A DNA stretch of 64,000 bases from an uncultured Opitutales bacterium. Lineage in GTDB: Bacteria; Verrucomicrobiota; Verrucomicrobiia; Opitutales; UBA9783. The DNA is taken from contig CALXMI010000052.1 in the NCBI GenBank assembly GCA_944389435.1, forward strand, positions 544 to 64,543, read 5' to 3'. This document shows positions 3,722 through 63,519 of the stretch, piece after piece. The notes beneath the pieces were generated by a model. That model did no database searches. It had not been told where the DNA came from and saw nothing but the letters and a program-made list of their open reading frames with translations. Numbering within the stretch: position 1 is the first letter of the stretch; every line of letters begins with the position of its first letter. The position numbers and the translations under genes are program-made.

Positions 3722-4300
3722 TCAATTCCGTTCTCTCATGGCTTCATTTAAGGCTTGAACACTTAATCGATAAGTGTGGCAATCGTCTTTATCTTTATGC
3801 CACTCTGTAACGTAAATACCTGTAGGATCTTTTGAATCCTTATGCAAGGTTATTTTGAAACCACCTGCATTGATGACATTATTTTTGTTTGAAAAAGGAT
3901 ACTTTTGCTGTGTTTTTTCACAAAAAATCAACCCGCTAAAAGCCTCTATGTTATAGGCAGCCACGCCTTTTGTAAGCGTTTGTAACACACCCTCATCGGT
4001 TGCAATAATGGCTTCTTTGGTATCACAACTTACCTGTCGTAAGGTAAATCCATACGGCGATCTTTGGCCTTGTGTCAAGTGAAGCAGTTCCTGTTTATAT
4101 AAAAATACGAAACGTTGTTCCCCTGAAGGCATTTGAAGGCAACCATGGTACTGCAATGGAAACGGCTCATATTGGAATTGCTCCAAACGGTAAGCGTTGG
4201 TTTGATTCTGAAGCGGGACAAAAATGGATACTTGTGGTAAGTCATCTGCCATAACAAAAGTTGACAGGAACCATAAAAATAAGGTGCGTAAGGATTTCAT
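3722..4300 (-). CDS. Secreted hypothetical protein encoded directly downstream of a GspE-like ATPase
   Basis: The track ORF is 3722..4327 with a TTG start. An in-frame ATG at 4300 gives a signal-peptide-like 'MKSLRTLFLWFLSTFVMA/DD' and lies 4 nt after the ATPase stop (4305). No domain recognised. Confidence 0.7.
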   Translation of the reverse strand: MKSLRTLFLWFLSTFVMADDLPQVSIFVPLQNQTNAYRLEQFQYEPFPLQYHGCLQMPSGEQRFVFLYKQELLHLTQGQRSPYGFTLRQVSCDTKEAIIATDEGVLQTLTKGVAAYNIEAFSGLIFCEKTQQKYPFSNKNNVINAGGFKITLHKDSKDPTGIYVTEWHKDKDDCHTYRLSVQALNEAMRERN

Positions 4301-4304
4301 AGCG

Positions 4305-5453
4305 TTAATTTTGAAAAATCCATTCAAATTGAGGAACGGCAGCTTGTGTCCATTGCTGATGAATTTGCAGTTTTACGTTATCCTTAAAAACAGAAAAATC
4401 GATACCTAATTCTGCGCAACGTTGAGAAACCATTGCCAGGTCGTTTGCATGCAAAGTCGTAATAACCAAATAGCCAGATAGGCTAGAATAAAAGGCAGCT
4501 TGAGCAGTTTCAGTATCTCGAATTTCGCCCCAAACAATAACGTCTGGATCTTGTCGCAAAACGGCATGCATTGCGTCTTGGATCCTGTAATTTTGCTGTG
4601 GATTTATTTCCGTCTGAACAAGCGACGACAGTTCAATTTCTATCGGATCTTCAATCGCAATAATCTTCTTACCCTGTTTATGCAGAAAATCTGCAATTGA
4701 ATAAAGCGTCGTCGTTTTTCCGCTACCGGTTGGCCCTGAAATAAGGATCATGCCTGCTTTAAAGGTTTTACCTTTCTGGGTTAAAGTCTGATATAAGTCA
4801 TCTGGCAGCTGCAACGACGATAACTGACACGGAAAGATCGATTCACTCAATAAACGCAACACAAGGCTTTGTACAACCGGACTCGCCATGTAAGAAAGAC
4901 GACAAAATACATGCATTTGTTGACAGACATATCGAAAATGACCTTCCTGAGCTCGAAGCGTATTGTCAATGTTTAAGGAGGCTGCCGACAAAAAGCTTTT
5001 TAACAAGAGCTCGCCTTGTTCAAGCGGTAACTGCTTTTGCGTAAACACTTGCCGCTGACAACGAAATTGAAGTTGTGCCCCTTGCGATGTTAACGTTAGC
5101 AATACATCCGAAGCTCTTTGCTGTAGTGCTTGAGATAAAATGTCTTCAAATGCATTATGGTCCGACAAGAGCCTAACACCAGAAAGCTTCGATTTATGCT
5201 GACAAGCATACCATCGAGCATCGGTTGCCGCCTCAAGCTTTGTCCAACACACTTGCGGCAAATCCCAAGGCAAAGCAATCGTGAACGTTTGCGGTCCCAT
5301 TTGGTAAAAAGGCACTCGCAGCTTTCTTAATTGCACTAAAGTCGAAAAACGGTCTTCCGCTTTAAGCTTTGTGAGGGCATGAATGATGGTTCTCTTTTGA
5401 ATGGCAGCCTGAACACGTTGCAGGATGCTTGTAATCCGTTTCATAAAAGCCAT
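4305..5453 (-). CDS. Short GspE/PilB/ComGA-type secretion ATPase (copy 1)
   Basis: Walker A 'GPTGSGKTTT', Asp box 'IAIEDPIE', Walker B 'DPDVIVWGEIRD', His box 'LVITTLHAN'. The N-terminal segment looks like T2SSE_N. The protein ends about 44 aa after the His box, so it has no Cys4 zinc domain. In-frame ATGs are at 5453 and 5444, and the track start at 5486 is TTG. Every candidate start overlaps the upstream FmdB gene. Confidence 0.85.
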   Translation of the reverse strand: MAFMKRITSILQRVQAAIQKRTIIHALTKLKAEDRFSTLVQLRKLRVPFYQMGPQTFTIALPWDLPQVCWTKLEAATDARWYACQHKSKLSGVRLLSDHNAFEDILSQALQQRASDVLLTLTSQGAQLQFRCQRQVFTQKQLPLEQGELLLKSFLSAASLNIDNTLRAQEGHFRYVCQQMHVFCRLSYMASPVVQSLVLRLLSESIFPCQLSSLQLPDDLYQTLTQKGKTFKAGMILISGPTGSGKTTTLYSIADFLHKQGKKIIAIEDPIEIELSSLVQTEINPQQNYRIQDAMHAVLRQDPDVIVWGEIRDTETAQAAFYSSLSGYLVITTLHANDLAMVSQRCAELGIDFSVFKDNVKLQIHQQWTQAAVPQFEWIFQN

Positions 5454-5607
5454 GTCCTTTAAAGATGATACCCGAACCTGCTCCAATACACTTCTTCAAA
5501 GCAGGTTTGTTGCATTGTGGACAAATGGTCTTCGCGGGCTCACTGATGGAATGAAAAATCTCAAACTTTTTTCCACACTCAAGACAAATGTAATCATAAG
5601 TTGGCAT
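5362..5607 (-). CDS. FmdB-family zinc-ribbon protein
   Basis: 81 aa. 'MPTYDYICLECGKKFE...CPQCN' (CxxC...CxxC), followed by 'GIIFKGHGFYETDY'. Confidence 0.85.
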   Translation of the reverse strand: MPTYDYICLECGKKFEIFHSISEPAKTICPQCNKPALKKCIGAGSGIIFKGHGFYETDYKHPATCSGCHSKENHHSCPHKA

Positions 5608-10784: not shown

Positions 10785-12530
10785 ATGGATTTTTCTTTAG
10801 AGTCGTATTTAAACAATAAGCTTAAAGTATTGGCTGCCGATTTGCCAATTTTTGGAAAAGATTTTGATCCTGAAATTCGGCCTGCAGATGAACGTTTTGG
10901 CGATTTTCAAGCTAATGGTATCCTTTCTTACTTGGGCCGACGAAAAGAAAATCCACGTCAAGGTGCTTTGCAGATGTTGGAAGTGTTCAAACAAAACGAT
11001 ACGTTGTTTGACGTCGAAGTTGCTGGGCCTGGTTTTTTGAACTTTAAGCTGAAAGATGCGGGTGTTTTAGCTTGGTTAAAGCAGTTTCATACGGCCGATT
11101 CCTACAAAGGGCACTATCAATCTATTTTTTCCAACAAAACGGTCGTGATTGATTATTCATCGCCTAATACTGCCAAACGAATGCATGTGGGCCATTTGCG
11201 CTCGATGGTTATTGGTGAAGCACTTCAGCGTTTTATTCGTTTTGGGGGCGGAAATGTCATTCGAGACAATCACATTGGCGACTGGGGAACTCAATTCGGC
11301 ATTCTGCTTATGCAGATAAAAGCTACGGGCTATTCTTTTAATGAAGCACCTGAGCAGGCAATTGAGACTTTGGAGCGTTTGTATCAAGACGGAAGCGCTC
11401 TAACCAAGGAGGATACTCATGCTTTAGAGACGGCACGGCAAGAATTGGTTAAGCTGCAGAAGGGCGATGCAGAGAATTTGGAGCTTTGGAAGAAAATCAA
11501 TGCCATTTCTTATCAAAGCTTTGAAGTCATCTATAAGCGCATGGACGTTACGTTTGACGAAGTACTCGGTGAGTCTTTTTATCGCGACAAAGTGAATGCT
11601 GTCTATGAAGCTTTACAGCAGCATCAACTTGCTGTTGTAGATCAAGGTGCTTTGGTTGTTTTTCATCCGGAGCATCCTCGTTTTTGTAAGCAACCGTTTT
11701 TGGTTCGCAAGTCCGATGGTGCTTCCAATTACGCTTCTACGGATTTGGCTACCATCCTTTATCGCGTTCAACATTTTCAGGCGGATGCCATTGTTTACGT
11801 AACTGATTGCCGACAAAGAGATCACTTTGAGCAGCTGTTTTTGACGGTAAAGAAATGGTTTCAAGCTGAAAGCCGTCCGTTACCGGAATTGTACCATGTC
11901 TATTTTGGTACGGTTTTGGACGCCAACGGAAAGGCTATTAAGACCCGTGAAGGTAAACCGATCCAATTGCAGGCGTTGTTGGACGAGGCCGTTCGTCGCG
12001 CGCATGCATTGATTTGTGAAAAGAGCCCTGATCTGCCTGAAGATGAGAAACTGCATGTGGCCGAGGTTGTTGGCATTGGTTCTATAAAGTACGCCGATTT
12101 GTCTCAAGAGCGAACGGGAAATTACCGCTTCGAGTGGGATAAGATGATCAATTTTGATGGTAATACAGCACCCTATCTGTTGTACGCAATTGCACGTATT
12201 TATGCAATTTTAAGGAAGTGTGATGCAAGCGATACCGTGAGTGGTGAAGGCGTTCTATCGTTTTCGACGGAAACTGAGCGCGCTTTGGGCCATAAATTGC
12301 TTGCGTTCTCGATGGCGCTAACGTTGTCGCTTAGAGAGCTGAAACCACATTGGTTGTGCCGTTATTTGTTTGAATTAGCTGGAACGTTTTCAACATTTTA
12401 CAATGCCGACAAGGTTATGACGGAAGATAAAAACACTCGCTGGGTTCGATTAACGTTGTGTAAAGCCACTTTGGCGACCTTAGAAACTGGACTGAGTTTG
12501 TTGGGCCTTAAAACCTTACAAAGAATGTAA
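10785..12530 (+). CDS. argS: Arginine--tRNA ligase
   Basis: 581 aa. 'SSPNTAKRMHVGHLRS' (HIGH region) and a C-terminal DALR-type anticodon-binding end '...LLGLKTLQRM'. Confidence 0.95.
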   Translation: MDFSLESYLNNKLKVLAADLPIFGKDFDPEIRPADERFGDFQANGILSYLGRRKENPRQGALQMLEVFKQNDTLFDVEVAGPGFLNFKLKDAGVLAWLKQFHTADSYKGHYQSIFSNKTVVIDYSSPNTAKRMHVGHLRSMVIGEALQRFIRFGGGNVIRDNHIGDWGTQFGILLMQIKATGYSFNEAPEQAIETLERLYQDGSALTKEDTHALETARQELVKLQKGDAENLELWKKINAISYQSFEVIYKRMDVTFDEVLGESFYRDKVNAVYEALQQHQLAVVDQGALVVFHPEHPRFCKQPFLVRKSDGASNYASTDLATILYRVQHFQADAIVYVTDCRQRDHFEQLFLTVKKWFQAESRPLPELYHVYFGTVLDANGKAIKTREGKPIQLQALLDEAVRRAHALICEKSPDLPEDEKLHVAEVVGIGSIKYADLSQERTGNYRFEWDKMINFDGNTAPYLLYAIARIYAILRKCDASDTVSGEGVLSFSTETERALGHKLLAFSMALTLSLRELKPHWLCRYLFELAGTFSTFYNADKVMTEDKNTRWVRLTLCKATLATLETGLSLLGLKTLQRM

Positions 12531-12532
12531 CG

Positions 12533-12745
12533 ATGGAAGTCTATCTCATAGCGCTTTTGGTGGTAAGCATTTTGGGCTGTCTGGTATTTTTATGCGGCAT
12601 AGAAGATCGTCAAATAAGCCGCTATGAAGCTTTAGAGGCGAAACATGCGTTTCTTTGTCATGATTGTCAGCACGTATACATCGGCAGCAAGGACTTAGTT
12701 AAATGTCCGCATTGTGGGCACAAGAATTCTTTTTTAAGGTTTTAA
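12533..12745 (+). CDS. Small membrane-anchored zinc-ribbon protein (hypothetical)
   Basis: 70 aa. N-terminal TM 'VYLIALLVVSILGCLVFLCGI', then 'CHDCQ...CPHCGH'. It sits 2 nt after argS and 1 nt before kpsF. Confidence 0.55.
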   Translation: MEVYLIALLVVSILGCLVFLCGIEDRQISRYEALEAKHAFLCHDCQHVYIGSKDLVKCPHCGHKNSFLRF

Positions 12746-12746
12746 T

Positions 12747-13718
12747 ATGCAAGCATGGGGCGATTGGGGTAAAAAGGTTTTAGCTGAAGAAATTAACAGC
12801 TTGCAGCGTATATATGAGCGTTTTGATGGGATTGGCTTTGCAAAAGTGGTTGATTTGATTATAAAGCATACTGGTAAAGTCGTACTGACGGGCATTGGTA
12901 AATCCGGCTACATCGCTCAAAAAATAAGCTCAACACTGAACAGTACGGGCACACGTTCTGTTTTTTTACACCCATCGGAAGCGCTGCATGGCGATTTAGG
13001 GATTTATACAAGCGGCGACCCTACTATTTTTCTATCGCGCAGTGGAAGCACTACAGAATTATTGCGACTTGTTCCCATCGTTCGACAATTTAATTCCCCC
13101 GTCATTGCCTTGGTGAGCAATTTGATGTCGCCTCTGGCCCAAATGGCTGACCATGTACTTGACGCCTCCATTTTGAAAGAAGCCGATCCGCTGGGCTTTG
13201 TACCCACATCCAGTACCACACTTGCGTTAGCTTTAGGAGACGCTTTGGCCTGTACTCTCATGCAGGCACGTGGGTTCAAAAAAGAAGACTTTTTCAGATT
13301 TCATCCTGGCGGTCAACTAGGTAAAGCCTTAAGTCGATGTGTAGGCGACTTTACCTGCGCGTTGAAAGATGTGGCCTGCGTAACCCCAGCAACATCTTTG
13401 CGCGACGTTGTGATTGCCATGACCCTAAAACCACTTGGTGCGGCTTTTGTTATGGAAGGCAACCTATTTAAGGGACTGATAACCGATGGCGATATTCGAC
13501 GCTCTCTGCAAACGCACGCATCCATTGAGAACGTTTTTGCTAAAGATCTTATGACCGAAAATCCGGTAAAAATTTATGCGAATATGAATCTCGAAGAAGC
13601 ATTACAGCTGATGGAAGCGCGCCCGCAGCAATTGAGCGTGCTACCGGTTTTCAACGAAGATAAATCCTGTCGCGGTCTATTCCGCTTGCACGACGCTTAT
13701 GCCCCCTTACGTAGCTAA
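12747..13718 (+). CDS. kpsF: Arabinose-5-phosphate isomerase (KpsF/GutQ, SIS + 2 CBS)
   Basis: 323 aa. SIS motif 'LTGIGKSGYIAQKISSTLNSTG' and tandem CBS domains at the C-terminus. Confidence 0.9.
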   Translation: MQAWGDWGKKVLAEEINSLQRIYERFDGIGFAKVVDLIIKHTGKVVLTGIGKSGYIAQKISSTLNSTGTRSVFLHPSEALHGDLGIYTSGDPTIFLSRSGSTTELLRLVPIVRQFNSPVIALVSNLMSPLAQMADHVLDASILKEADPLGFVPTSSTTLALALGDALACTLMQARGFKKEDFFRFHPGGQLGKALSRCVGDFTCALKDVACVTPATSLRDVVIAMTLKPLGAAFVMEGNLFKGLITDGDIRRSLQTHASIENVFAKDLMTENPVKIYANMNLEEALQLMEARPQQLSVLPVFNEDKSCRGLFRLHDAYAPLRS

Positions 13719-37852: not shown

Positions 37853-37911
37853 ATCATTTTTTATAAGCGACCTTCACGGATGTTCTTGTAGCATTCCGTA
37901 AGAGACTAAAG

Positions 37912-37958
37912 CCTCGAAGGAAACTCCTGCAGGTGTTTCCTTCGAGGTGTGTTTGTTT
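37912..37958 (+). terminator. Rho-independent terminator of gap
   Basis: A perfect 13-bp stem, CCTCGAAGGAAAC (37912-24) / GTTTCCTTCGAGG (37935-47), with a 10-nt loop, followed by 'tgtgtttgttt'. Confidence 0.85.
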
Positions 37959-38071
37959 ACGGGCACAGTTTTCTATCCATTTCCTACCTTACAACAGGTT
38001 ATGTTGATGGATCCATTTTTCGTGATAATTTTATTTACTCATCATTCGTTTTTCTCTATAATCAAGAGGCA

Positions 38072-38797
38072 ATGTTGAGGAGTCGAAAAAAAGGATTTAC
38101 GTTGGTTGAAGTGATTATTGCAGGAACCTTGTCGACTATTGTGTTGGCAGGCATCATGCAGTTTTTTTTAGCTCAACTCAATCAATACCGTCTTATTTCT
38201 GGGTATAATAAGTTAAATGAGTCATTGCGAATTTTCGGAAAATTCTTTGAAAAAGACGTACACAATGCATTGTCGTTTTATGTATTTTCATCAGAAGGAA
38301 ACTCTACGACTTCGGGAACGGCTTTGAATTTTACAAAAGCAAATATGTCGTCATACACCTTTCCTAAGGTTGGCAATTGTCTACTGCTGATTGAAGAACG
38401 CGGTATGATTTCTGGAGGCCGAGGCACGCTCTATTACGTAGGTTCATCCATCGTTAGAAATGGACAGCTGTGTTATCCGCTTTACAGGACGCTTGTTACC
38501 TTTAATACATCCAATAAGATCGCAGAGACGGCATCTAGTTTTTCCAACCTTCCTGTTGCCTACTTAAAGCCAAATGCCGATGAAACGGGGCCTGTAACCT
38601 TTTTCAGTTACGGTGGATCCACAGGGATTTTTTACTTAAATTCGCGAAAAATGATCGATACTGAGGGCATTTACACCCCTGGATGCCGTCATGGAGTTTA
38701 TTTTAAAGGCACTATGCTTGAACCAGGCTTACATGGGCAATCCGCTGAGTTGACGACGCAGTTTTGTTTTTTCTCGCGCAATCCAAGATTCCTGTAA
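38072..38797 (+). CDS. Prepilin-type (class III signal) minor-pilin-like protein, GspJ/PilW-sized
   Basis: An ATG at 38072 is preceded by 'aagagg'. 'MLRSRKKG/FTLVEVIIAGTLSTIVLAG' has Gly-1 and Glu+5. The track start (GTG at 37949) lies inside the gap terminator and is rejected. Confidence 0.8.
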   Translation: MLRSRKKGFTLVEVIIAGTLSTIVLAGIMQFFLAQLNQYRLISGYNKLNESLRIFGKFFEKDVHNALSFYVFSSEGNSTTSGTALNFTKANMSSYTFPKVGNCLLLIEERGMISGGRGTLYYVGSSIVRNGQLCYPLYRTLVTFNTSNKIAETASSFSNLPVAYLKPNADETGPVTFFSYGGSTGIFYLNSRKMIDTEGIYTPGCRHGVYFKGTMLEPGLHGQSAELTTQFCFFSRNPRFL

Positions 38798-38838
38798 ATT
38801 GGCTTGCTAAAACGGCCATTATTTTTATAGCGTAAAGC

Positions 38839-40014
38839 ATGTTGTTTTTTTGCAAGGTGTTCAGCACGCATGAAATCTGGAAGTGGCGTTGCGTCTTTGC
38901 ATCTTCACATCGTCAATGTTTACGCAAGTTGCTGGGCAGAAACGACTACTGCAGTCAGGTTTTTAGCGTAGGCGATATTTTTGAAAAAATTTTTAAAAGG
39001 CTTGATTTACCCCCCATTCAAGAGAAGCATTGGCTTATCTTTTTTGAAAAATTACGCGCTCAACTTTCTACATCCATATCTCTGATAAATGCTTTACGGC
39101 AAATGGCGGATATGCCTTTTAACCATTCTTTGCAGTATTTTATCGCCAAGGCCATTGATCGTCTTTCGAACGGCTTTTACATGTATCCCTTATTGAGCGA
39201 TCCGCGATTAAACTTGGGCCAGCAGTCGATAAAGCTTTTGCAATCGGCGGAAGTCGGCGGTTATCTGCCGCAAGCCTTAGAACGACTGATAGAGCTTATG
39301 CATCTACAGCAAAAAATCCGAAAGCAAATGCTACAGAGTCTTATTTATCCAACCTGCGTTTTAGTGACCATCGTTGTATTTTTACTACTGATGAGTTCTT
39401 TTTTACTCCCTCAGTTTGAGGCATTTTTTATCCAACAAAGCATACCGATAAATGATTTTTTGAGCTTTTTATTCCACTCAAACCGCCACTTAGGCAAAGT
39501 TTTTATGATCGCCGGTGTAGGTTTTTGCGGGTTGTATCTCTGGATGAAGACTAAAAAAATTTCTGTACAAAATGGACTTAATCGTCTCTTAAGCCATTGG
39601 TTCCCGTCTTTTAAGTATACACTGTTCGCAATGAATTTAGCTGAGCTTTTAGAAAACCAAATACCGCTACTTGAATGTTTAACCTTAGCTGCGGAAAATT
39701 TGCCCAAAAAGTTCTCTGTCGATAAAATGTCTGTTGCTTTATCGAATGGCATACGGCTGTCTATGGCTTTAGAAGACTTGCCTGAGGATTTTTCTCACGT
39801 CTTACAAACATCTGAGGTTGACAATCGATTGATACAAAATCTACGGCAATTATCTGCGGATTATTACAAGCGTTACGAAAATCAGTTGCTAGGGTTATCC
39901 AAATGGCTCGAACCAGTTAGCATTTTGCTCATGGCATTGATTTTGTTTTTAGCAGTCGCCTGTTTGTTTTACCCCCTACTGCAGGTTTTTCAGTCAATGA
40001 AGTTCGAGCTATAA
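38839..40014 (+). CDS. gspF: GspF/PilC-family inner-membrane platform protein
   Basis: 391 aa. It has two T2SSF-like repeats, each ending in TM segments ('...LIYPTCVLVTIVVFLLLMSSFLLPQF', '...LEPVSILLMALILFLAVACLFYPLLQVF'). Confidence 0.85.
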   Translation: MLFFCKVFSTHEIWKWRCVFASSHRQCLRKLLGRNDYCSQVFSVGDIFEKIFKRLDLPPIQEKHWLIFFEKLRAQLSTSISLINALRQMADMPFNHSLQYFIAKAIDRLSNGFYMYPLLSDPRLNLGQQSIKLLQSAEVGGYLPQALERLIELMHLQQKIRKQMLQSLIYPTCVLVTIVVFLLLMSSFLLPQFEAFFIQQSIPINDFLSFLFHSNRHLGKVFMIAGVGFCGLYLWMKTKKISVQNGLNRLLSHWFPSFKYTLFAMNLAELLENQIPLLECLTLAAENLPKKFSVDKMSVALSNGIRLSMALEDLPEDFSHVLQTSEVDNRLIQNLRQLSADYYKRYENQLLGLSKWLEPVSILLMALILFLAVACLFYPLLQVFQSMKFEL

Positions 40015-40095
40015 TCACCGTAAAGTGTCATGAATTTTATTTGATTCTTACTTTAGGTATTGCAAATTATTTCATATACATTAGAATTTATTATA

Positions 40096-42822
40096 ATGGA
40101 CATTCGTTATACCCGAAGGAAGCGACACCGTGGAAATGTCGTTTTTACTTCATTGATTTTTTTATTTATCTTAACAGGAACGTTACGCCTATGCGTTAAC
40201 AAAACGCTTCTTGAAAGTCGCCAGACATCCCTATTTATTCAAGAAACGCAAGCATATTACCTATCCGAAAATTTGATGTCCCTAGGTCGCGACTACGTTT
40301 ATCAAATGATGCAAAATCCTAGAGAAACCAACATTTTCTTAGGTACAACTGCGTTTTACGACAAAGATAAATCGATAACAGCAAACGGCATCATTGATTT
40401 CAATGGATCGCTCAGCAAGCAGCAAATTGTACCCGACGATTTCCCGTTACAAATAGAAGATAATTCTTGGAGCATAAAAGGCGGTCCTGTTTTCTGGCAA
40501 AGCAACAACAAAAACATCAACGACGAACGCTATTTATCGGAAATTTACCTTATAGGCAAATTCGATGTCAATTCTGCTTTCATGAACGATTGGACCTATC
40601 GTATGGTACAAACCATAGAAATCGAACGTAATCCTCTGTGCGATTTTTCCCTTTATGCCGAAGGAGATTTGGCTATACGAGTACAAAATGTTACAGACAC
40701 CACTTTTGAAAAACCTGTACAAATCAACGGAAATGCACGTTATTATAGGATACACACACAAGATCAAGCTAAAGGCTTCGGTCGTAGTACAAGCAGCTTC
40801 AATATTGCAGGACATTTTCTAAGAATTAACGAAAACGATACAACATCCACCTTTAGCTCTATAAAAATTCCAGATAAGTATTGTTTGTACGACAATAGCT
40901 CCTTTTACGATAACTTTAAAAACCCTTACTTGCCTAAAAGTGCTGGCAAGTATTATTCTTCTTTTCATCTTCTCGACAAGGAACTTTTAAACTATTACAG
41001 TAATGCAACCAATCCTGCTTATAAAAACTATGAACATTATATCTATAAAACCTTTAAAGGCAAATTTTTGACACGCAGCCGTATTTATCGCCCATGTGGG
41101 TTTGATCCAGAAAACGACTGGGGCTATTGGTGGCCGATCGAAGATGGCGGAAAATCGGCTAATGCTCGTCTGTTGGACTACGTGACCGGCATGCATAACC
41201 TAACCGACTCTTCGAAAGTAAGCAGTTCTAGGATCTTTACCAACCGAATAGGAAACATTAAAACTGCATTTAGTTCTTTGAGAGGATTAAATGAGTATCA
41301 ATTGACCGAAAAAGCTCGATTGGTTGAAATGCAAAAATTATGCAATCATCCGCATCTTCAATTAAAACTATTAATTTCCTTCTCCGAAAGCACCGGTATA
41401 TCCACTACAGTCGACACCTTTTACACACGCTATGGGTTAAGTTGTTGCAAGTCAGCTGAAAATAATACCTTTGCTCCTAATCCCATCTTTCATCCAGCAA
41501 AAGATAATATCTTTATCAGTCGTTACTATGCTCTGATAAATCAGAAAAAGTATATTTATGATGCAAGTATGCGTTACTCTGAAGATGAAGGTGTTGCTTT
41601 TTATAAAACAAATGAAAATAACATACCTACAGCAAGTAACAGCATCGAATCTAATTACTATTTTAATAAAATAGACAATGGAAAATTATGTTGTCATACA
41701 AAAAGTAAAGACCCAACCTACACGGGTGAAGTTTATTACAATACAACCTATAACACCACACCAACTTCTTCAACAGATATTAATTTCGGCCCACATAAGC
41801 TCGTTGAATCGACTGAAAATTATAATCACTGGGAACCAGATGCAACCGCCACACCCGTTGTGCCAGATTCCAATACGCCCATTTTCATGTACGACCGAAA
41901 TCGTGCAAAATGGATACAAATTATCGACATTGATGTTGCTAAATTATGTAACATAAGCTCAGACAATTGGAAAATTTACAATCATACTTTAGCCGTTAAC
42001 ACATATTGGGTTGGAGCAAACCTAGGGCCACGTAATTATACAGTAGGCACAAACGATATTAGAAAAAATTATATCACAAATCGAACAAATGAAACCTCTT
42101 TTACACCTAAAAACACTAACGTTATTGATATTGGCGTTCGCCTCATTAACGCATCAAAGATTCCAACAGGTGGCTTAACGATTTGGTGCCCTTATCCGCT
42201 CTATATTAAAGGGGATTTTAATACTACCGATACACAGCCAGCTTTCATCGTAACTGATTCCTTAACTGTTTTAACGAATTCCTGGGCAGATTGGCGAAGC
42301 ATGGTAGATCCCTACGATAGTTACTTCAACAACATGACAGGACTGTATTCCTATCGCTCACAAACACCACCTACCATCAAAGCCCATATTATGACTGGCC
42401 GCACCCATCCGAATTACTGGCTCACCAGCGATAAATCTAAAATTTCTCCGGACGGTGGCCATCGCGAAGCCATTCGTACACTAGAACCCATGAACGACGT
42501 TATACCCTTGTACGGCTCATTGCTGTTGCCGTATTATTGCAAAGAACAATGGGAGCCACCGATCAACTTTCAAAAATGGGAAACGGCTGGTTTCTATCCC
42601 TGTTGTTTAGAGCTTCACTCCTTAGACACAAAGATCCCAGCTGGAATGACGTTTTACCACAAGGTTAATCGTGGCCGTAAAACTCAGGCCATTGGCCCAA
42701 CTACGTACAGCATCCTCGAAGGCAGTACACTTTGGAGTAAGGATTGGTCAAATATCAGCAACGTATTTTCATCCTACCACAACGCTTTGCCAAATTACCT
42801 AAAATACGAAACCGCCCCGTAG
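40096..42822 (+). CDS. 908-aa protein with a PilX-N-like uncleaved N-terminal anchor; otherwise unknown (candidate filament tip/cap protein)
   Basis: The ATG at 40096 gives 'MDIRYTRRKRHRGNVVFTSLIFLFILTGTLRL' (basic stretch plus hydrophobic helix, no G/F cleavage motif). The body is rich in N, Y and T. The C-terminal region contains 'GGLTIWCPYPLYIKGDFNTTDTQPAFIVTDSLTVLTNSWADW'. Confidence 0.8.
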   Translation: MDIRYTRRKRHRGNVVFTSLIFLFILTGTLRLCVNKTLLESRQTSLFIQETQAYYLSENLMSLGRDYVYQMMQNPRETNIFLGTTAFYDKDKSITANGIIDFNGSLSKQQIVPDDFPLQIEDNSWSIKGGPVFWQSNNKNINDERYLSEIYLIGKFDVNSAFMNDWTYRMVQTIEIERNPLCDFSLYAEGDLAIRVQNVTDTTFEKPVQINGNARYYRIHTQDQAKGFGRSTSSFNIAGHFLRINENDTTSTFSSIKIPDKYCLYDNSSFYDNFKNPYLPKSAGKYYSSFHLLDKELLNYYSNATNPAYKNYEHYIYKTFKGKFLTRSRIYRPCGFDPENDWGYWWPIEDGGKSANARLLDYVTGMHNLTDSSKVSSSRIFTNRIGNIKTAFSSLRGLNEYQLTEKARLVEMQKLCNHPHLQLKLLISFSESTGISTTVDTFYTRYGLSCCKSAENNTFAPNPIFHPAKDNIFISRYYALINQKKYIYDASMRYSEDEGVAFYKTNENNIPTASNSIESNYYFNKIDNGKLCCHTKSKDPTYTGEVYYNTTYNTTPTSSTDINFGPHKLVESTENYNHWEPDATATPVVPDSNTPIFMYDRNRAKWIQIIDIDVAKLCNISSDNWKIYNHTLAVNTYWVGANLGPRNYTVGTNDIRKNYITNRTNETSFTPKNTNVIDIGVRLINASKIPTGGLTIWCPYPLYIKGDFNTTDTQPAFIVTDSLTVLTNSWADWRSMVDPYDSYFNNMTGLYSYRSQTPPTIKAHIMTGRTHPNYWLTSDKSKISPDGGHREAIRTLEPMNDVIPLYGSLLLPYYCKEQWEPPINFQKWETAGFYPCCLELHSLDTKIPAGMTFYHKVNRGRKTQAIGPTTYSILEGSTLWSKDWSNISNVFSSYHNALPNYLKYETAP

Positions 42823-43902
42823 CTCGCTAAAAAGCTTTTCTGTGAAGGATAACGTACGCGGAGGAACTTCTGTCCAAGATTGAAAAAGAATGCCTCGTAA
42901 AAACGTCCGCTGCAAATCTTCCGCATATCCGAAGTTTTTCAAACGCTGGATAACCTCTCGTACAGAACCTGCGTGAAAGGTTGCTAACGTACAATGGCCT
43001 GTTATCGATGCATTAACTGCCAACTTTAGTTGTTGCGGTGTACGAATTTCTCCAATGCCCACCACATCGATAGCCTGCCTTAAAACATTACGCAGCAACT
43101 GTGGCGCGGTCTCGTTTGAAAGCTTGATCTGAACAAGAGAGGGCTGTGGTAATTCTATAGGGTCTTCCAAACTTAACACACGCTTATGATCTAACGTTTT
43201 TAATAAGCGATAATAGGATGTTGTCTTACCATTACCAATGGGGCCCGAAATAAGCCATAACCCTAACCCGCATCCTTTGAATGCAGCTGCAAATTTTGTC
43301 CGGAGCAACCCATCTTGGTAATCGGCTTCCGTACGTTTTTCAGAAAGTAATCGAACAACAAAACTTTCGCCATGTAAACACGGAAGGGTAGACACACGAC
43401 AACTCATGCTATCGTTGGGTAAAAACACCTGAAATTGGCCATTTTGTGGATGTAACCGATCCGTAGTATTCAGACTGGCCTTCAATTTTATGAGATTCTC
43501 AAAAGCTTTTTGCGTGGATTGATCAACCGACTTAAAACGTAGCAGTCGCCCTTGCCGTCTTATATAGATGGTCGCCCCTTTCGCATTTGGAATAAAATGC
43601 ACATCTGAAGCCTGCTGATAAAAACTCTCTTGTAAGATTTGCGTAAGCTGCTTAGAAATGGGTTTTACGCTATGATCCGTATCAGAAACATCGTTAAAAC
43701 AAGCCATTTTGAGCTCATCAGCAAAGACTTTGTTGTCAATATATTCCAGTAAAACCTCTTTGCCGTAAAATTGACTTAAGTAATGGACCATCTGCACAGT
43801 TTGTGGCGTTATAGGCTGCCTAACTTTACAAAGCATCTGATCCCTGTCAATGTGCACAGGGATGATTCCTGCCTTATTCAAGCAATGTTTACTCAATTGC
43901 AT
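42799..43902 (-). CDS. Short GspE/PilB/ComGA-type secretion ATPase (copy 2)
   Basis: 367 aa. Walker A 'GPIGNGKTT', 'LSLEDPIE', 'DVVGIGEIR', His box 'TGHCTLATFHAGS'. There is no C-terminal Cys4 domain. It converges on and overlaps the 908-aa gene by 24 nt. Confidence 0.85.
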   Translation of the reverse strand: MQLSKHCLNKAGIIPVHIDRDQMLCKVRQPITPQTVQMVHYLSQFYGKEVLLEYIDNKVFADELKMACFNDVSDTDHSVKPISKQLTQILQESFYQQASDVHFIPNAKGATIYIRRQGRLLRFKSVDQSTQKAFENLIKLKASLNTTDRLHPQNGQFQVFLPNDSMSCRVSTLPCLHGESFVVRLLSEKRTEADYQDGLLRTKFAAAFKGCGLGLWLISGPIGNGKTTSYYRLLKTLDHKRVLSLEDPIELPQPSLVQIKLSNETAPQLLRNVLRQAIDVVGIGEIRTPQQLKLAVNASITGHCTLATFHAGSVREVIQRLKNFGYAEDLQRTFLRGILFQSWTEVPPRTLSFTEKLFSELRGGFVF

Positions 43903-56031: not shown

Positions 56032-56342
56032 GACCTCTCTTTATCTCTTTATTGACCTCCTTTACACCACGCTCACACTCCAACGCTTCTTCTATCACAG
56101 ACATTTCCAGACTCAATTTTCCAAAACTAAAGCTATATTCCATCTCAAAGAGGAACGCTTACTGAAATCCTTTTCTTTGCATCTTTGGATGTCTAATTCT
56201 GTCAGTAATCTATTTGTTGGAGCTTTCGAAGGAACGTGATCCATATTCTTGTATCTCGCAAAAATTCTCACAAAAACACTACCGTATTCTAAAAAATCAC
56301 CCAACTGCGCAACAACCTTCCTTAGAAAAAAAGTTGCAATAT

Positions 56343-57755
56343 GTGCGTAAATCCTTTACTTTAGAGTCTGTGAAGGCGTATCGAAACCTATTAATCTTGC
56401 CTGCGTTTTGTTGTTTGCCCCTAGTTTTATCGGCCAGTAACAACGAACGAAGGTGGAATTTTTGGATAGAAAAAAGGACGACGCCTGACGAAACTCAATC
56501 GTTTGTTCGGCCCATTGGCGCCAGTTATGAGACAAAAGAGCGAATCGAGAATTTCTTTTTTTATCCTTTTGGCTGGGAATATCGTCAGCCCGATCGTCGT
56601 TACGCTTCTGCTATATTTAGCCTTGTTCAGTACGATTACCATAACGGCCCAACCCCTTACCGCGAAGGGAAGGTTTTTCCTTTTGTTTACTTTAAAAAAG
56701 GCGTAAACAAAGAAGCTGATTATGCAGCTGTTTGGCCTTTAGGTGGAACCGTCAAACCTTTCTTGGGATGCGACCAAATTAGCTGGTTCATGTGGCCCCT
56801 ATGGGTAAAAACTCAGAACAAAGGTGTCGTAAGCCGCTGGATGCCTTGGCCGTTTATTAATTGGCGTAAGGGTGACCACTGTGGTTTTGGATTTTACCCA
56901 CTTGGCGGTCATTTTTATAAAAAAGACGAATTCGACGAACGTTACTTTTTATGGCCTCTGGGATACCACCATAACCATTGGAAGCAAAACACCTACAAAT
57001 GTGGATTTCTGCCATTTTACACTTACGAAAAAAGTCCTAACGTAAAAGACCTATCGATCGTTTGGCCGTTTTGGGGCCATCGAATTGAAAACAAGCCTCA
57101 TTATGAAGAACATCGCCTTTTATGGCCATTATGGGTCCAAGGACGAGGCGAATTACGTACGGTAAAACGCTGGGCGCCTTTCTATACATTTTCAGAGATT
57201 AAAAACGATTCAAATTACCAAAAGACTTGGTATGCTTGGCCCTTCTTTAAGTTTCTATCTTGGACCGAACATGGCGTAAATATTCAACAGGAACAATTTT
57301 TGTATTTTTTATTTTGGCATCAAGAACAGTTCCATGCCCAAACGGATGAATTTTTAGGCAGCAAGACCCACGTCTGGCCCCTCTATTCTTATTGGGACGA
57401 TGGTCATGGACATAAACAATTGCAATCTTTGAGCCCCTTTGAGGTGTTTTTTCCCGGTAACAAAGTCGTACGCGACGTTTATACGCCCTTATTTACCCTT
57501 TTTCGATACGAAGAAAAGGATGGTTCCATACAACAATCTTGCTTGTTTAAGCTATTTCAGGAGAAAAGAGATAAAGAGGGCACAAGCCTGCATTGTCCAC
57601 TTTGTTTAGACTATAAAAATACTCGGCAAGAAAAAAGCTTTTCAATTTTAAAAGGTTTATTAGAATATAAGAAAGCCGGCAGTGAAAAGACGTTTCGGTT
57701 GTTTTGGATTCCGTTAGGAAAGGCAAAAATCGTAAAGGATAACAGGCTGTTATGA
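56343..57755 (+). CDS. Secreted aromatic-Pro-Leu/Phe repeat protein (~19-residue period), unknown family, translationally coupled to mlaE
   Basis: The track ORF is 56214..57755 (TTG), and there is no ATG in the first ~190 codons. A GTG at 56343 gives a signal-like 'MRKSFTLESVKAYRNLLILPAFCCLPLVLSA/SNN'. About 16 motifs of the type (W/Y/F)P(L/F) follow: FYPFGW, VFPFVY, VWPLGG, MWPLWV, PWPFIN, FYPLGG, LWPLGY, FLPFYT, VWPFWG, LWPLWV, WAPFYT, AWPFFK, VWPLYS and others. The stop overlaps the mlaE ATG (ATGA at 57752-55). Confidence 0.75.
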   Translation: MRKSFTLESVKAYRNLLILPAFCCLPLVLSASNNERRWNFWIEKRTTPDETQSFVRPIGASYETKERIENFFFYPFGWEYRQPDRRYASAIFSLVQYDYHNGPTPYREGKVFPFVYFKKGVNKEADYAAVWPLGGTVKPFLGCDQISWFMWPLWVKTQNKGVVSRWMPWPFINWRKGDHCGFGFYPLGGHFYKKDEFDERYFLWPLGYHHNHWKQNTYKCGFLPFYTYEKSPNVKDLSIVWPFWGHRIENKPHYEEHRLLWPLWVQGRGELRTVKRWAPFYTFSEIKNDSNYQKTWYAWPFFKFLSWTEHGVNIQQEQFLYFLFWHQEQFHAQTDEFLGSKTHVWPLYSYWDDGHGHKQLQSLSPFEVFFPGNKVVRDVYTPLFTLFRYEEKDGSIQQSCLFKLFQEKRDKEGTSLHCPLCLDYKNTRQEKSFSILKGLLEYKKAGSEKTFRLFWIPLGKAKIVKDNRLL

Positions 57756-61450: not shown

Positions 61451-61903
61451 ATGAAGAACAAGTTTTTAAGTCAATGTAGAGGGTTCTCCCTCATGGAAAT
61501 ATTGATCGTACTAGCTCTTATGGGCATGCTGCTAGGGTTGGTCATTTTCAACTCAGAATCGATTTTTGGTGGTGGCCAGAAAAAAGTCGCCAAGTTGTTT
61601 GTTTCAAAAAGCGTGGATATTCCGCTCATTGCGTATCGTTCACATATTGGCAGTTATCCTTCTACAGAAGAGGGCTTAAGTGCTCTACTGAAAGCACCTA
61701 TGGGAAAATCTTCACGCTGGCAAGGGCCTTACATCAAAGATCGTGAAAGTTTAGTAGACCCCTGGGGCAATCCTTACCAATACCGATATCCAGGCGTTCA
61801 TAATCCCAACAGTTACGATGTTTGGTCTATGGGGCCGGGCGGACAAAGTGGCGATGACGATGACATTGGCAATTGGGACAACAATGACGAAAGCGAAGAT
61901 TAA
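61451..61903 (+). CDS. gspG: Type II secretion major pseudopilin GspG
   Basis: 'CRG/FSLMEILIVLAL', 'YPSTEEGLSALL', 'DPWGNPYQYRYPG', 'YDVWSMGPGGQSGDDDDIGNW', plus an acidic tail. Confidence 0.92.
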   Translation: MKNKFLSQCRGFSLMEILIVLALMGMLLGLVIFNSESIFGGGQKKVAKLFVSKSVDIPLIAYRSHIGSYPSTEEGLSALLKAPMGKSSRWQGPYIKDRESLVDPWGNPYQYRYPGVHNPNSYDVWSMGPGGQSGDDDDIGNWDNNDESED

Positions 61904-61911
61904 TTGCTGCA

Positions 61912-62397
61912 ATGCCAGGTAATCGAAAATGCGCCTTTTCTTTAATCGAGGTGCTATTAGTACTGGCCCTGTTTGGATTAATAGGGTCTGTATGTGTCAT
62001 CAATTTTGACGTCGTACAAAAGGTCTTTTCCTCTGGCAATACGCAATGGATAACCTTGATAGAGGAAGCCGTTCAAGAAGGGCGGCTTTTGGCCTCTAAA
62101 GATCACTGTGTTGTTTTTTTAAAACAGGACGAAAAAAACCTTTCCTTGTATAAAAGGCCTCAGGAAATTTTGAGAATATTTCCTTGTCCTGCGACGGAAG
62201 ATACCTGTCATTTTGTATCCGGAGTATTGACCGAAAATGGCCTATTGCGCCCGTCTGAGCAAAAAATATCGCAAATCGAAATCAACCCAGACGGCTTTGT
62301 CAAAAGCGCATTCGTTGTCATTAATGGTGAAGAAGAACAAATTTATTCCATCGATCCACTAACAGGGATTTTTAAACAAACGGAGACATCCTTATGA
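61912..62397 (+). CDS. gspH: Minor pseudopilin, GspH-like by position
   Basis: 'NRKCA/FSLIEVLLVLALFG' (Ala at -1, Glu at +5). It is the second gene of the gspG operon. Confidence 0.6.
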   Translation: MPGNRKCAFSLIEVLLVLALFGLIGSVCVINFDVVQKVFSSGNTQWITLIEEAVQEGRLLASKDHCVVFLKQDEKNLSLYKRPQEILRIFPCPATEDTCHFVSGVLTENGLLRPSEQKISQIEINPDGFVKSAFVVINGEEEQIYSIDPLTGIFKQTETSL

Positions 62398-62810
62398 AAC
62401 AAACACGTACGGGTTTTACCCTTATCGAAGTGGTTGTGGCGCTGACGCTGTTTTCCATCTCTGTACTTGTTCTAACACAAAGTTTTATGAATGGTCTAAT
62501 GTGCAAAACAACATTAGAAAAGGAAGACACCAGACCATTTGTTCTCTTCACGATCCGACAACAACTATACGAAATGGAACGCGATAAGGTTACCGCTACC
62601 CACATTATTCCTTTTCCTGACAATGAAACAAAAGTCGAATGGCAAGGCTCCGTAGAGTTTTCAAAAATTTTGAACCTATACAAAGTAAGTGTAAAAATCA
62701 AGGACCAAGACGAACCGTTATACATTTGGCTGCATCGTCCCGATTGGATGACGAACGACGAAAGAAGTACGGTTCAACAAAAGTGGTTAACCGAAACAAA
62801 TGATGCGTAA
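62394..62810 (+). CDS. gspI: Minor pseudopilin GspI-like
   Basis: 'MKQTRTG/FTLIEVVVALTLFSISVL'. 138 aa, third gene of the operon. Confidence 0.7.
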   Translation: MKQTRTGFTLIEVVVALTLFSISVLVLTQSFMNGLMCKTTLEKEDTRPFVLFTIRQQLYEMERDKVTATHIIPFPDNETKVEWQGSVEFSKILNLYKVSVKIKDQDEPLYIWLHRPDWMTNDERSTVQQKWLTETNDA

Positions 62811-63519
62811 GAAAGGTTCAGGTTTTACGCTTATAGAGGTGGTTGTTGCTCTTTCTTTGGGCGGACTCATTCTAACCTCCATCATGTCGTTGCTCGTTGG
62901 TTTTTTGTATGCCTGGGAAAACAAAAAGACGCCTTATGAACTCTTTGTTCAACACGTGGATGCGTGCATGCGTTTCCTGGATAAAGAGTTGAATACGTTT
63001 GTCCCCATTTACCAAGGGAAATCGGTTGAATATGAAGCTTATCAACCCGTAAAGTTGAGTTTCAAAAATAAATCTGAACAGAATATTTTTGCCTTTGGTG
63101 GGCTCAAACAAACTCCGTTATTCTTTGTAGAGGACAATGCCTGCATCGCTTGGCGAATCTTGTTTTTGTCTCCAGAAGGGCTTTGTTTAGCCATAGAAAC
63201 TCCTGAAACCGTTGCCAAACGTTTACAAGAAGGCGTAGAAGCCACCGGTAAAACCGTGCAACAATGTTTTATATTAAGTCCTTACGTCAACAAGCTTGAA
63301 TATGGCATTTTAAATGAAGACAGAAGTACATGGGAATTTGCAACAACCATCGAACAATACGCTAAGCTTTTCCCGAAAAAAACAGACATAGGCCGTCCTC
63401 ACGGCTTACGTGTAACGTTCAAACAAGAAGATTGGGAATTGACGCGATTTATCTCTTTAAAAACAATCAAAAAGACCGATGACAAAAAACTTCAACGAAA
63501 GGTCCCCCATGCGCAATAG
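62800..63519 (+). CDS. gspJ: Minor pseudopilin GspJ-like
   Basis: 'MMRKKGSG/FTLIEVVVALSLGGLIL'. 239 aa, fourth gene of the operon. Confidence 0.7.
   Translation: MMRKKGSGFTLIEVVVALSLGGLILTSIMSLLVGFLYAWENKKTPYELFVQHVDACMRFLDKELNTFVPIYQGKSVEYEAYQPVKLSFKNKSEQNIFAFGGLKQTPLFFVEDNACIAWRILFLSPEGLCLAIETPETVAKRLQEGVEATGKTVQQCFILSPYVNKLEYGILNEDRSTWEFATTIEQYAKLFPKKTDIGRPHGLRVTFKQEDWELTRFISLKTIKKTDDKKLQRKVPHAQ

Follow-up and report, generated by a model that had tools for sequence, protein, structure and literature searches.

Four filament-type genes at one locus

We analysed a 64,000-nt stretch of DNA (hereafter the window) from an uncultured Opitutales bacterium (GenBank assembly GCA_944389435.1, contig CALXMI010000052.1, positions 544 to 64,543), and in it four adjacent genes whose products resemble parts of type IV filament machines such as the type II secretion system (T2SS): a prepilin-type protein of 241 residues (pilin241), a GspF-like platform protein (F), a protein of 908 residues (the giant) and, on the opposite strand, a short GspE-like ATPase. 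All four open reading frames (ORFs) are present at the positions given in a first-pass annotation of this DNA, which also had the four identities right: of the profile searches it proposed, those with N_methyl, T2SSF and T2SSE found pilin241, F and the ATPase, respectively, whereas PilX_N did not match the giant, which was placed by profile homology instead. The features of the locus are as follows.

~37910-37950, 5' of the promoter-like site: GC-rich hairpin behind gapA, read directly from the sequence
38034..38062, plus strand: promoter-like site TTTACT-17-TATAAT, with 10 of 12 consensus positions, 10 nt upstream of the pilin241 gene
38072..38797, plus strand: pilin241, prepilin-type minor (pseudo)pilin of GspJ/PilW type, 241 aa, N_methyl match
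38839..40014, plus strand: F, GspF/PilC/ComGB-family inner-membrane platform protein, 391 aa, T2SSF match
40096..42822, plus strand, from an ATG: the giant, enlarged PilX/GspK/HpsA-type capping minor pilin by profile homology, 908 aa
42799..43902, minus strand: short GspE/ComGA-like hexameric-ATPase homologue, 367 aa, T2SSE match (1.2e-53)

The short gaps between the pilin241 and F genes (41 nt) and between the F and giant genes (81 nt) suggest that these three are co-transcribed as a single unit. Its start is inferred to lie at 38034-38062, although a promoter scan was overall not enriched relative to shuffled sequences. The giant and ATPase genes are convergent and share their 3' ends over 24 nt (42799-42822), as the first-pass annotation had it. 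On its own strand the ATPase gene closes a yidC-yebC-rluA-like string, with 14 nt between it and the rluA-like gene. An ORF scan showed about 40 other ORFs in the window to be housekeeping genes.

The giant has homologues embedded in minor-pilin operons

No Pfam family, PilX_N included, matched the giant above threshold. Its orthologues fall into 40 clusters, all from Opitutales/Puniceicoccales metagenome-assembled genomes (MAGs), and its homologues there stem exclusively from human (Hadza), rumen and termite guts; one of them, 98% identical (P0001), is likewise 908 residues long. A chlamydial origin of the DNA, suggested by its gene content, was rejected given these homologues. The most conserved part of the family is the N-terminus, with basic residues, a G-[ND]-T-F motif and a hydrophobic stretch, followed by a conserved 'KTLHE.KL..IF.QETQGYYL.ENLMALARDY'. 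Threonine occupies position +5 after the conserved glycine, so that the hydrophobic helix lacks the Glu5 of typical prepilins. In an AlphaFold2 model based on 39 homologues (pTM 0.82, pLDDT 74.7) a 59-residue N-terminal helix (residues 15-73) packs on a beta sheet and is followed by regions rich in short strands. The PilX-N-like anchor reported by the first-pass annotation is compatible with this predicted helix, but its description as uncleaved cannot be upheld, since cleavage cannot be read from the sequence.

The same annotation held this anchor to be the only recognisable element of the giant, which proved wrong. A search with the family profile among 1.84 billion representative sequences retrieved 951 relatives at E <=0.001, most of them 530-620 aa long, and a 67-member family of ~570 aa among them aligned to the giant family in hhalign with a probability of 99.8% (E 1.2e-28) over giant residues 596-864. 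At a lower MAC threshold the alignment was colinear from end to end (giant 20-905 with residues 4-556 of the ~570-aa family), and the N-terminal 230 columns of the giant by themselves gave 95.6% (E 1.2e-8). The colinearity points to the giant being a full-length homologue of the ~570-aa family with ~330 extra residues (roughly 250-595), a middle insert that appears from these alignments to be lineage-specific.

Members of the ~570-aa family carry the marks of minor pilins of the capping type. Pfam PilX_N was matched by 14 of the 67 (best 5e-9); among 14 members tested, all matched NCBIfam EPS_HpsA in its C-terminal part (best 3.3e-25), and T2SS_GspK was matched by four (1.5e-8). In 80 metagenomic loci of this family (L026-L105), N_methyl was found in 60 of 116 same-strand upstream neighbours and GspH in seven, and PilM_2 in seven of 85 downstream neighbours. 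The usual layout, in which pilins of ~130 aa and ~200-300 aa, in this order, precede a PilX_N protein of ~550 aa, is the I-J-K or PilV-W-X arrangement, with the PilX_N gene last in a minor-pilin operon. As judged by profile homology, the giant is no orphan and is best described as an enlarged, full-length member of this widespread PilX_N/GspK/HpsA-related capping-pilin family.

The ~570-aa family is itself large, with at least 578 members confirmed among the first 600 matches listed, and Pfam offers no separate model for its conserved C-terminal domain (motif P.YI.GDYNT...PAA...DA.T.LS..W.D ... RFLE.W). Two other matches of the giant were taken as noise, one to Peptidase_S6 (0.0031, below the Pfam cut-off) and one to phage_P2_V, seen in four of 39 family members. 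The giant gene is AT-rich (36.6% GC at 40001-42000, compared to ~42% for the window), consistent with the Asn/Tyr/Lys/Thr-rich composition of its product.

A J/PilW-type pilin encoded beside the platform protein

Pilin241 begins with MLRSRKKGFTLVEVIIAG, which contains a class III signal (KKG|FTLVE) with Glu5, and its Pfam N_methyl match (1.8e-5) exceeds the gathering score; two cysteines near its C-terminus are conserved. Its other matches are weak and scattered over PpdB, ComGF, HpsC and GspJ models, PRK10557 being the best (0.00092) and ComGF the second (0.0011). A profile hidden Markov model (HMM) of pilin241 retrieved mainly genes that lie immediately before PilX_N-family genes, in the -1 (J/PilW) position. 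In hhalign it aligned with the set of proteins from this position at 97.4% over 67 columns, compared to only 36 columns with the set from the -2 (I/PilV) position. Pilin241 is therefore best read, as far as its sequence goes, as a minor pilin of J/PilW type, the natural partner of a K/PilX-type cap.

F contains two T2SSF repeats (3.8e-26, Pfam). Its best NCBIfam scores, 89.9 bits with ComGB (cut-off 240) and 85.6 bits with the GspF model TIGR02120 (cut-off 424), are both far below equivalog level, and PilC models gave at most 50 bits. The orthologues of F form only nine clusters (39-99% identity), beyond which identity with the next relatives falls to 24%. Neither the window nor the orthologue search showed more than one F-family gene.

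Two short, truncated ATPases

The T2SSE match of the 367-aa ATPase covers positions 4-275 of the 370 in the model, and the Walker A motif (GPIGNGKTT), Asp box, Walker B motif and His box are all intact. It aligns with residues 94-458 of a canonical 576-aa GspE, and so the ~93 N-terminal residues that hold the N1E domain and ~118 C-terminal residues are missing; there is no cysteine beyond the His box and hence no tetracysteine zinc motif, as the first-pass annotation had also noticed. The enzyme is truncated but, as predicted from these motifs, catalytically intact. In NCBIfam its best match was ComGA (189.1 bits, 7.5e-56, with a cut-off of 300), followed by GspE TIGR02533 (154.8 bits, cut-off 630), PilB (144.5, cut-off 675) and pilT_fam (84.6, cut-off 319). 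It belongs to a clade of 47 clusters (355-374 aa, 233-822 bits) confined to these MAGs, beyond which the next matches are canonical GspE and PilB proteins at <=136 bits. When this protein was used as a single query against genome contigs, 48 pattern matches were obtained and none was confirmed.

A second enzyme of this kind, missing from the first-pass annotation, is encoded near the start of the window.

4305..5486, minus strand: second short T2SSE-family ATPase, 393 aa, T2SSE match (2.1e-58)

It is 30% identical to the 367-aa ATPase, is truncated at the C-terminus at the same point and, with 216 bits for ComGA and 141 bits for pilT_fam, likewise misses every family cut-off. The 393-aa protein is a candidate partner, or antagonist, motor of the 367-aa ATPase. 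An ORF for a secreted-looking protein of 201 aa (3722-4327, minus strand) lies just downstream of its gene. In two related contigs (L007 and L009) a T2SSE gene for 380-389 aa is found near dnaA, ~10 kb from the gene for a 365-aa orthologue of the 367-aa ATPase.

A gspG-K operon lies 18 kb away

No major pilin is encoded in the four-gene locus itself; GspG, the sole major pseudopilin observed, belongs to an operon 18 kb away that runs past the end of the window.

61451-61903, plus strand: gspG
61912-62397, plus strand: gspH
62394-62810, plus strand: gspI
62800-63519, plus strand: gspJ
From 63509, past the window end (64000), plus strand: gspK-like fifth gene, with a K-type N-terminus (MRNRQTLGAVLIMVLG) and a weak GspK match

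GspG matched T2SSG at 3.5e-26 and scored 102.1 bits with TIGR01710, above the NCBIfam equivalog cut-off of 88.85; three N_methyl proteins follow it, and weak GspH, GspI and GspK matches were found in the operon. The gspG-H-I-J-K set at 61451 onward is genuine, as the first-pass annotation had proposed, and would probably form the filament assembled by the E/F proteins. As this operon already contains a GspK-like gene, the giant is not its missing GspK. An exact look-up of the GspJ-like protein of the window, for the sequence past its end, gave no record.

Elsewhere in the window, a 513-aa ORF (56214-57755, plus strand) with no Pfam or NCBIfam match lies directly upstream of an mlaE/mlaF/mlaD-like operon.

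The genes co-occur in relatives but are dispersed

The first-pass annotation had favoured a reading in which the four genes travel together as a separate machine. We compared gene order in related gut MAGs, with about 20 independent loci of the giant (L001-L006, L013-L025) covered to <=10 kb on each side. Beyond one strain 98-99% identical to ours, no relative was found with the four genes together; the giant and the ATPase are unlinked and only the pilin241-F pair is kept, the F orthologue being directly preceded by one of pilin241 (44-55% identity) in each of the three loci found (L010, L011 and L012). In GCA_964582055.1 the pilin-F pair (L011) and the giant (L016) are on separate contigs, and in one 91-kb contig the giant and the ATPase lie ~60 kb apart. 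The ATPase orthologue was isolated in three loci out of three, behind rpsT in L007 and L009 and beside genes for type III secretion chaperone-like proteins in L008. The filament genes thus co-occur in genomes but are dispersed, and the one contiguous canonical gsp operon that the first pass had considered as the contrary outcome was not seen in relatives either. Of its two readings, the one that fits best is a detached E/F core of a T2SS carrying two extra filament proteins.

One trace of an older order may survive. A conserved cluster of five genes (ABC_tran, ABC2_membrane, ABC_transp_aux, DUF4340 and one for ~810 aa), which we read as GldA/F/G-like, follows immediately downstream of the pilin-F pair in L010 (6469-13726) and L012 (4049-11345), and immediately downstream of the giant in L001 (13672-20940). 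This common neighbour is a hint of a former pilin-F-giant(-ABC) order, or of a functional link. We read the adjacency of all four genes in the window as partly a rearrangement accident, as regards the ATPase; its pilin-F-giant part may be an ancestral remnant.

The commonest surroundings of the giant, found in seven loci, consist of upstream genes (for a 247-aa membrane protein, FabH and a hydrolase) and, on the downstream side, a convergent gene for a 369-aa lipoprotein. This lipoprotein-like gene, with no Pfam match (L004 12871-13980, minus strand, and equivalents in L003, L014, L015, L016, L017 and L024), has no counterpart in the window, its place there being taken by the ATPase gene. The ~370-aa convergent gene behind the giant in relatives was considered as a possible ATPase gene, given its similar size, but encodes this unrelated lipoprotein. 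Giants also occur in tandem, three in L003 (10001-18638) and two in L017 (6944-12847), each ~38-41% identical to that of the window, a sign that the family may have diversified in some gut Opitutales. In L008, a gut Opitutales contig, the genes at 11191-13000, which adjoin the short ATPase orthologue, include TyeA and a weak SycN-type chaperone match; such type III-related neighbours hint at a host-interaction lifestyle.

Probably dispersed parts of one GspG-based apparatus

We favour, with moderate confidence, the reading that the four genes encode scattered components of one GspG-based, T2SS-like type IV filament apparatus and that the locus is not an autonomous machine. In such an apparatus the short ATPase, possibly with its 393-aa paralogue, would energise the F platform so that GspG from the operon at 61451 is polymerised. 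Assembly would be primed by a tip complex, either the H-I-J-K set of that operon or, alternatively, the pair of pilin241 as J-type and the giant as K-type cap with no Glu5. The latter pair would place the ~830-residue globular part of the giant at the far tip of the (pseudo)pilus, where it might act as a plug, an adhesin or a substrate-contact module, in line with proposals made for ComZ and cyanobacterial PilX/HpsA.

Several results weigh against this. Direct matches of the giant are marginal, ComGG_2 being found at ~0.0085 (17 bits compared to a cut-off of 40) and HpsA, at 0.011, in only two of 39 family members, with no direct match to GspK, and so the PilX_N-type assignment rests on transitive profile homology. 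Foldseek searches of the Protein Data Bank (PDB) with the whole model and with its N-terminal 250 residues gave no pilin, GspK or ComZ match, and neither the giant-family profile nor that of the bridging ~570-aa family found anything among PDB sequences. Relatives of pilin241, F or the ATPase were found within 10 kb of the giant in none of the ~20 loci, where it mostly stands beside housekeeping genes and the convergent lipoprotein gene, not beside pilins. Among the ~40 ORFs scanned in the window there was no secretin, PilM/N/O/Q or GspC/L/M (the sole PilM_2 match being MreB), which agrees with the first-pass annotation as regards secretin, GspL/M and PilMNO; no prepilin peptidase was seen among them either, but its absence, also claimed there, is unproven, as several ORFs of <300 aa were not scanned.

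The dispersal of the giant also lends weight to the view that it is a membrane-anchored surface or periplasmic protein (an adhesin or an enzyme) independent of any filament, next to F and the ATPase by accident, with only the ATPase, F and pilin241 as filament parts. Its constant lack of filament neighbours in the ~20 loci of relatives, the recurrent membrane protein-FabH-hydrolase and lipoprotein surroundings in seven loci, the tandem paralogues in L003 and L017, the low GC content of the gene and the lack of a structural match to pilins would all suit such a protein. Against it stand the homology that it shows along its whole length to the ~570-aa family from minor-pilin operons, the very strong conservation of the PilX_N-like N-terminal helix and the common ABC-cluster neighbour, which suggests that pilin, F and giant genes once stood in this order, and we consider a filament-independent giant unlikely.

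A self-contained, non-canonical filament machine made of pilin241, F, the giant and the short ATPase, and independent of gspGHIJK, would account for the adjacency of the four genes, with their short gaps and the convergent overlap, and for the great divergence of the E and F proteins, which form lineage-restricted clades far under all equivalog cut-offs; the second ATPase could then serve the T2SS instead. We think it distinctly improbable: the four genes do not co-travel beyond the near-identical strain, the locus has no major pilin, pilin241 has the features of a J/PilW-type and not of a major pilin, and no second F-family gene turned up in either the window or the search for orthologues.

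ComGA proteins are typically short ATPases that have no N1 or zinc domain, and a ComG-like pseudopilus for DNA uptake (competence), in which the ATPase, platform, pilin and giant would resemble ComGA, ComGB, ComGF and ComGG, respectively, would agree with a ComG model being the top NCBIfam match for the ATPase, F (2e-25) and the giant (ComGG_2) and the second for pilin241, but it is very improbable, as the scores fall far below the equivalog cut-offs (189 compared to 300, 90 to 240, 19 to 80 and 17 to 40), GspE and GspF models score nearly equally, the ComGA model of just 267 positions favours any truncated core, the major pilin present is a true GspG, and neither a ComGC-type major pilin nor ComEA or ComEC came to notice in the window, no search having been aimed at them.

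A more specific proposal can be made, albeit as a speculation that we would rate as rather unlikely: in this lineage a T2SS-type GspG pseudopilus with an interchangeable giant PilX/HpsA-like tip, primed by the J-type pilin encoded with the platform gene and powered by a minimal ATPase pair with neither N1E nor zinc domain, might form a surface-exposed filament for adhesion or host contact. Were tips interchangeable in this way, the tandem giants of relatives would represent a diversifying tip repertoire. More generally, our analysis offers a plausible role for a family of ~900-aa hypothetical proteins, comprising 40 clusters in gut Opitutales/Puniceicoccales and ~950 distant relatives (at 50% clustering) that Pfam leaves unnamed. 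The idea of bulky tip pilins of PilX/HpsA/ComZ type, recently put forward for cyanobacteria and Thermus, would be extended by it to the Verrucomicrobiota as well as to many lineages from the environment. The minimal GspE-like ATPase clade and the J-pilin/platform pair should also aid the annotation of type IV filaments in reduced or rearranged genomes that offer no operon context.

Comparison with known systems

Among verrucomicrobial proteins, the Verru_Chthon cassette (TIGR02600 protein A with pilin-like B, C and D) likewise combines a large protein with prepilin-type partners. One member of the bridging ~570-aa family matches protein A marginally (0.0041), whereas the giant does not match it and the cassette organisation is absent. 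Our literature searches on this cassette, and on Puniceicoccales and type II secretion, found nothing.

As for the canonical machines, the set that marks a type IVa pilus (PilB/PilT, PilC, PilMNOPQ and PilA) was not found in the window, and neither the ATPase nor F reaches equivalog level as ComGA or ComGB. The T2SS is represented by GspG and H-I-J-K, outside the four-gene coordinates, whereas the 367-aa ATPase does not have the full set of N1E, N2E and zinc-motif C-terminal domains of GspE. With its N2 domain and C-terminal core, and with neither N1E nor the tetracysteine zinc motif, that ATPase is closest to the short ComGA/PilT-like enzymes, ComGA being its top model. It differs from these in scoring under all equivalog cut-offs, in having a 47-cluster clade of its own, in occurring as two paralogues per genome and in being encoded apart from the platform gene in relatives.

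With GspK (NF037980) the giant would share its position in the filament, that of a cap with no Glu5 and with a J-type pilin as its partner, and a pilin of this type is encoded one gene away; it differs in being about three times longer and in that the genome already has a GspK-like gene.

A close likeness exists to PilX, HpsA (NCBIfam NF038301 EPS_HpsA) and ComZ. Cyanobacterial PilX contains a bulky beta-solenoid inserted in the pilin fold and has an expanded HpsA-like subfamily; its architecture is common to Thermus ComZ, and a role as tip plug or cap and adhesin has been proposed (bioRxiv 10.64898/2026.02.12.705559). The giant likewise appears to combine a basic N-terminus, a hydrophobic alpha1 with no Glu5 and a large non-pilin domain after the pilin head. 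Its 'QETQ.YYL.EN' occupies the place of the PilX_N motif 'A..AAEAG.E', and its C-terminal block (GVRLIN..LP..GLT....P.YI.GD.NT....PA.I..D..T.L...W.D ... R.LE.W) is common to the family that matches the HpsA C-terminus, so that the conserved C-terminal domain of HpsA-type proteins could be recognised in the giant by hhalign through the bridging family. In contrast, no solenoid or ComZ match was found for the giant with Foldseek, and its 908 aa lie between the ~570 aa of the common form and the ~1500 aa of HpsA. In its lineage it is usually not beside PilV/PilW-type pilins, and in the window the J-type pilin is two genes upstream with F in between; it comes from a gut bacterium of the Verrucomicrobiota in which GspG is the sole major pilin seen. 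Altogether, the parts are all of known kinds and do not make up a new kind of machine; what is unusual is their combination of a truncated ATPase pair, a conserved J-pilin/platform gene pair and an enlarged, tandem-duplicated and delocalised PilX/HpsA-type pilin in a lineage of gut Verrucomicrobiota.

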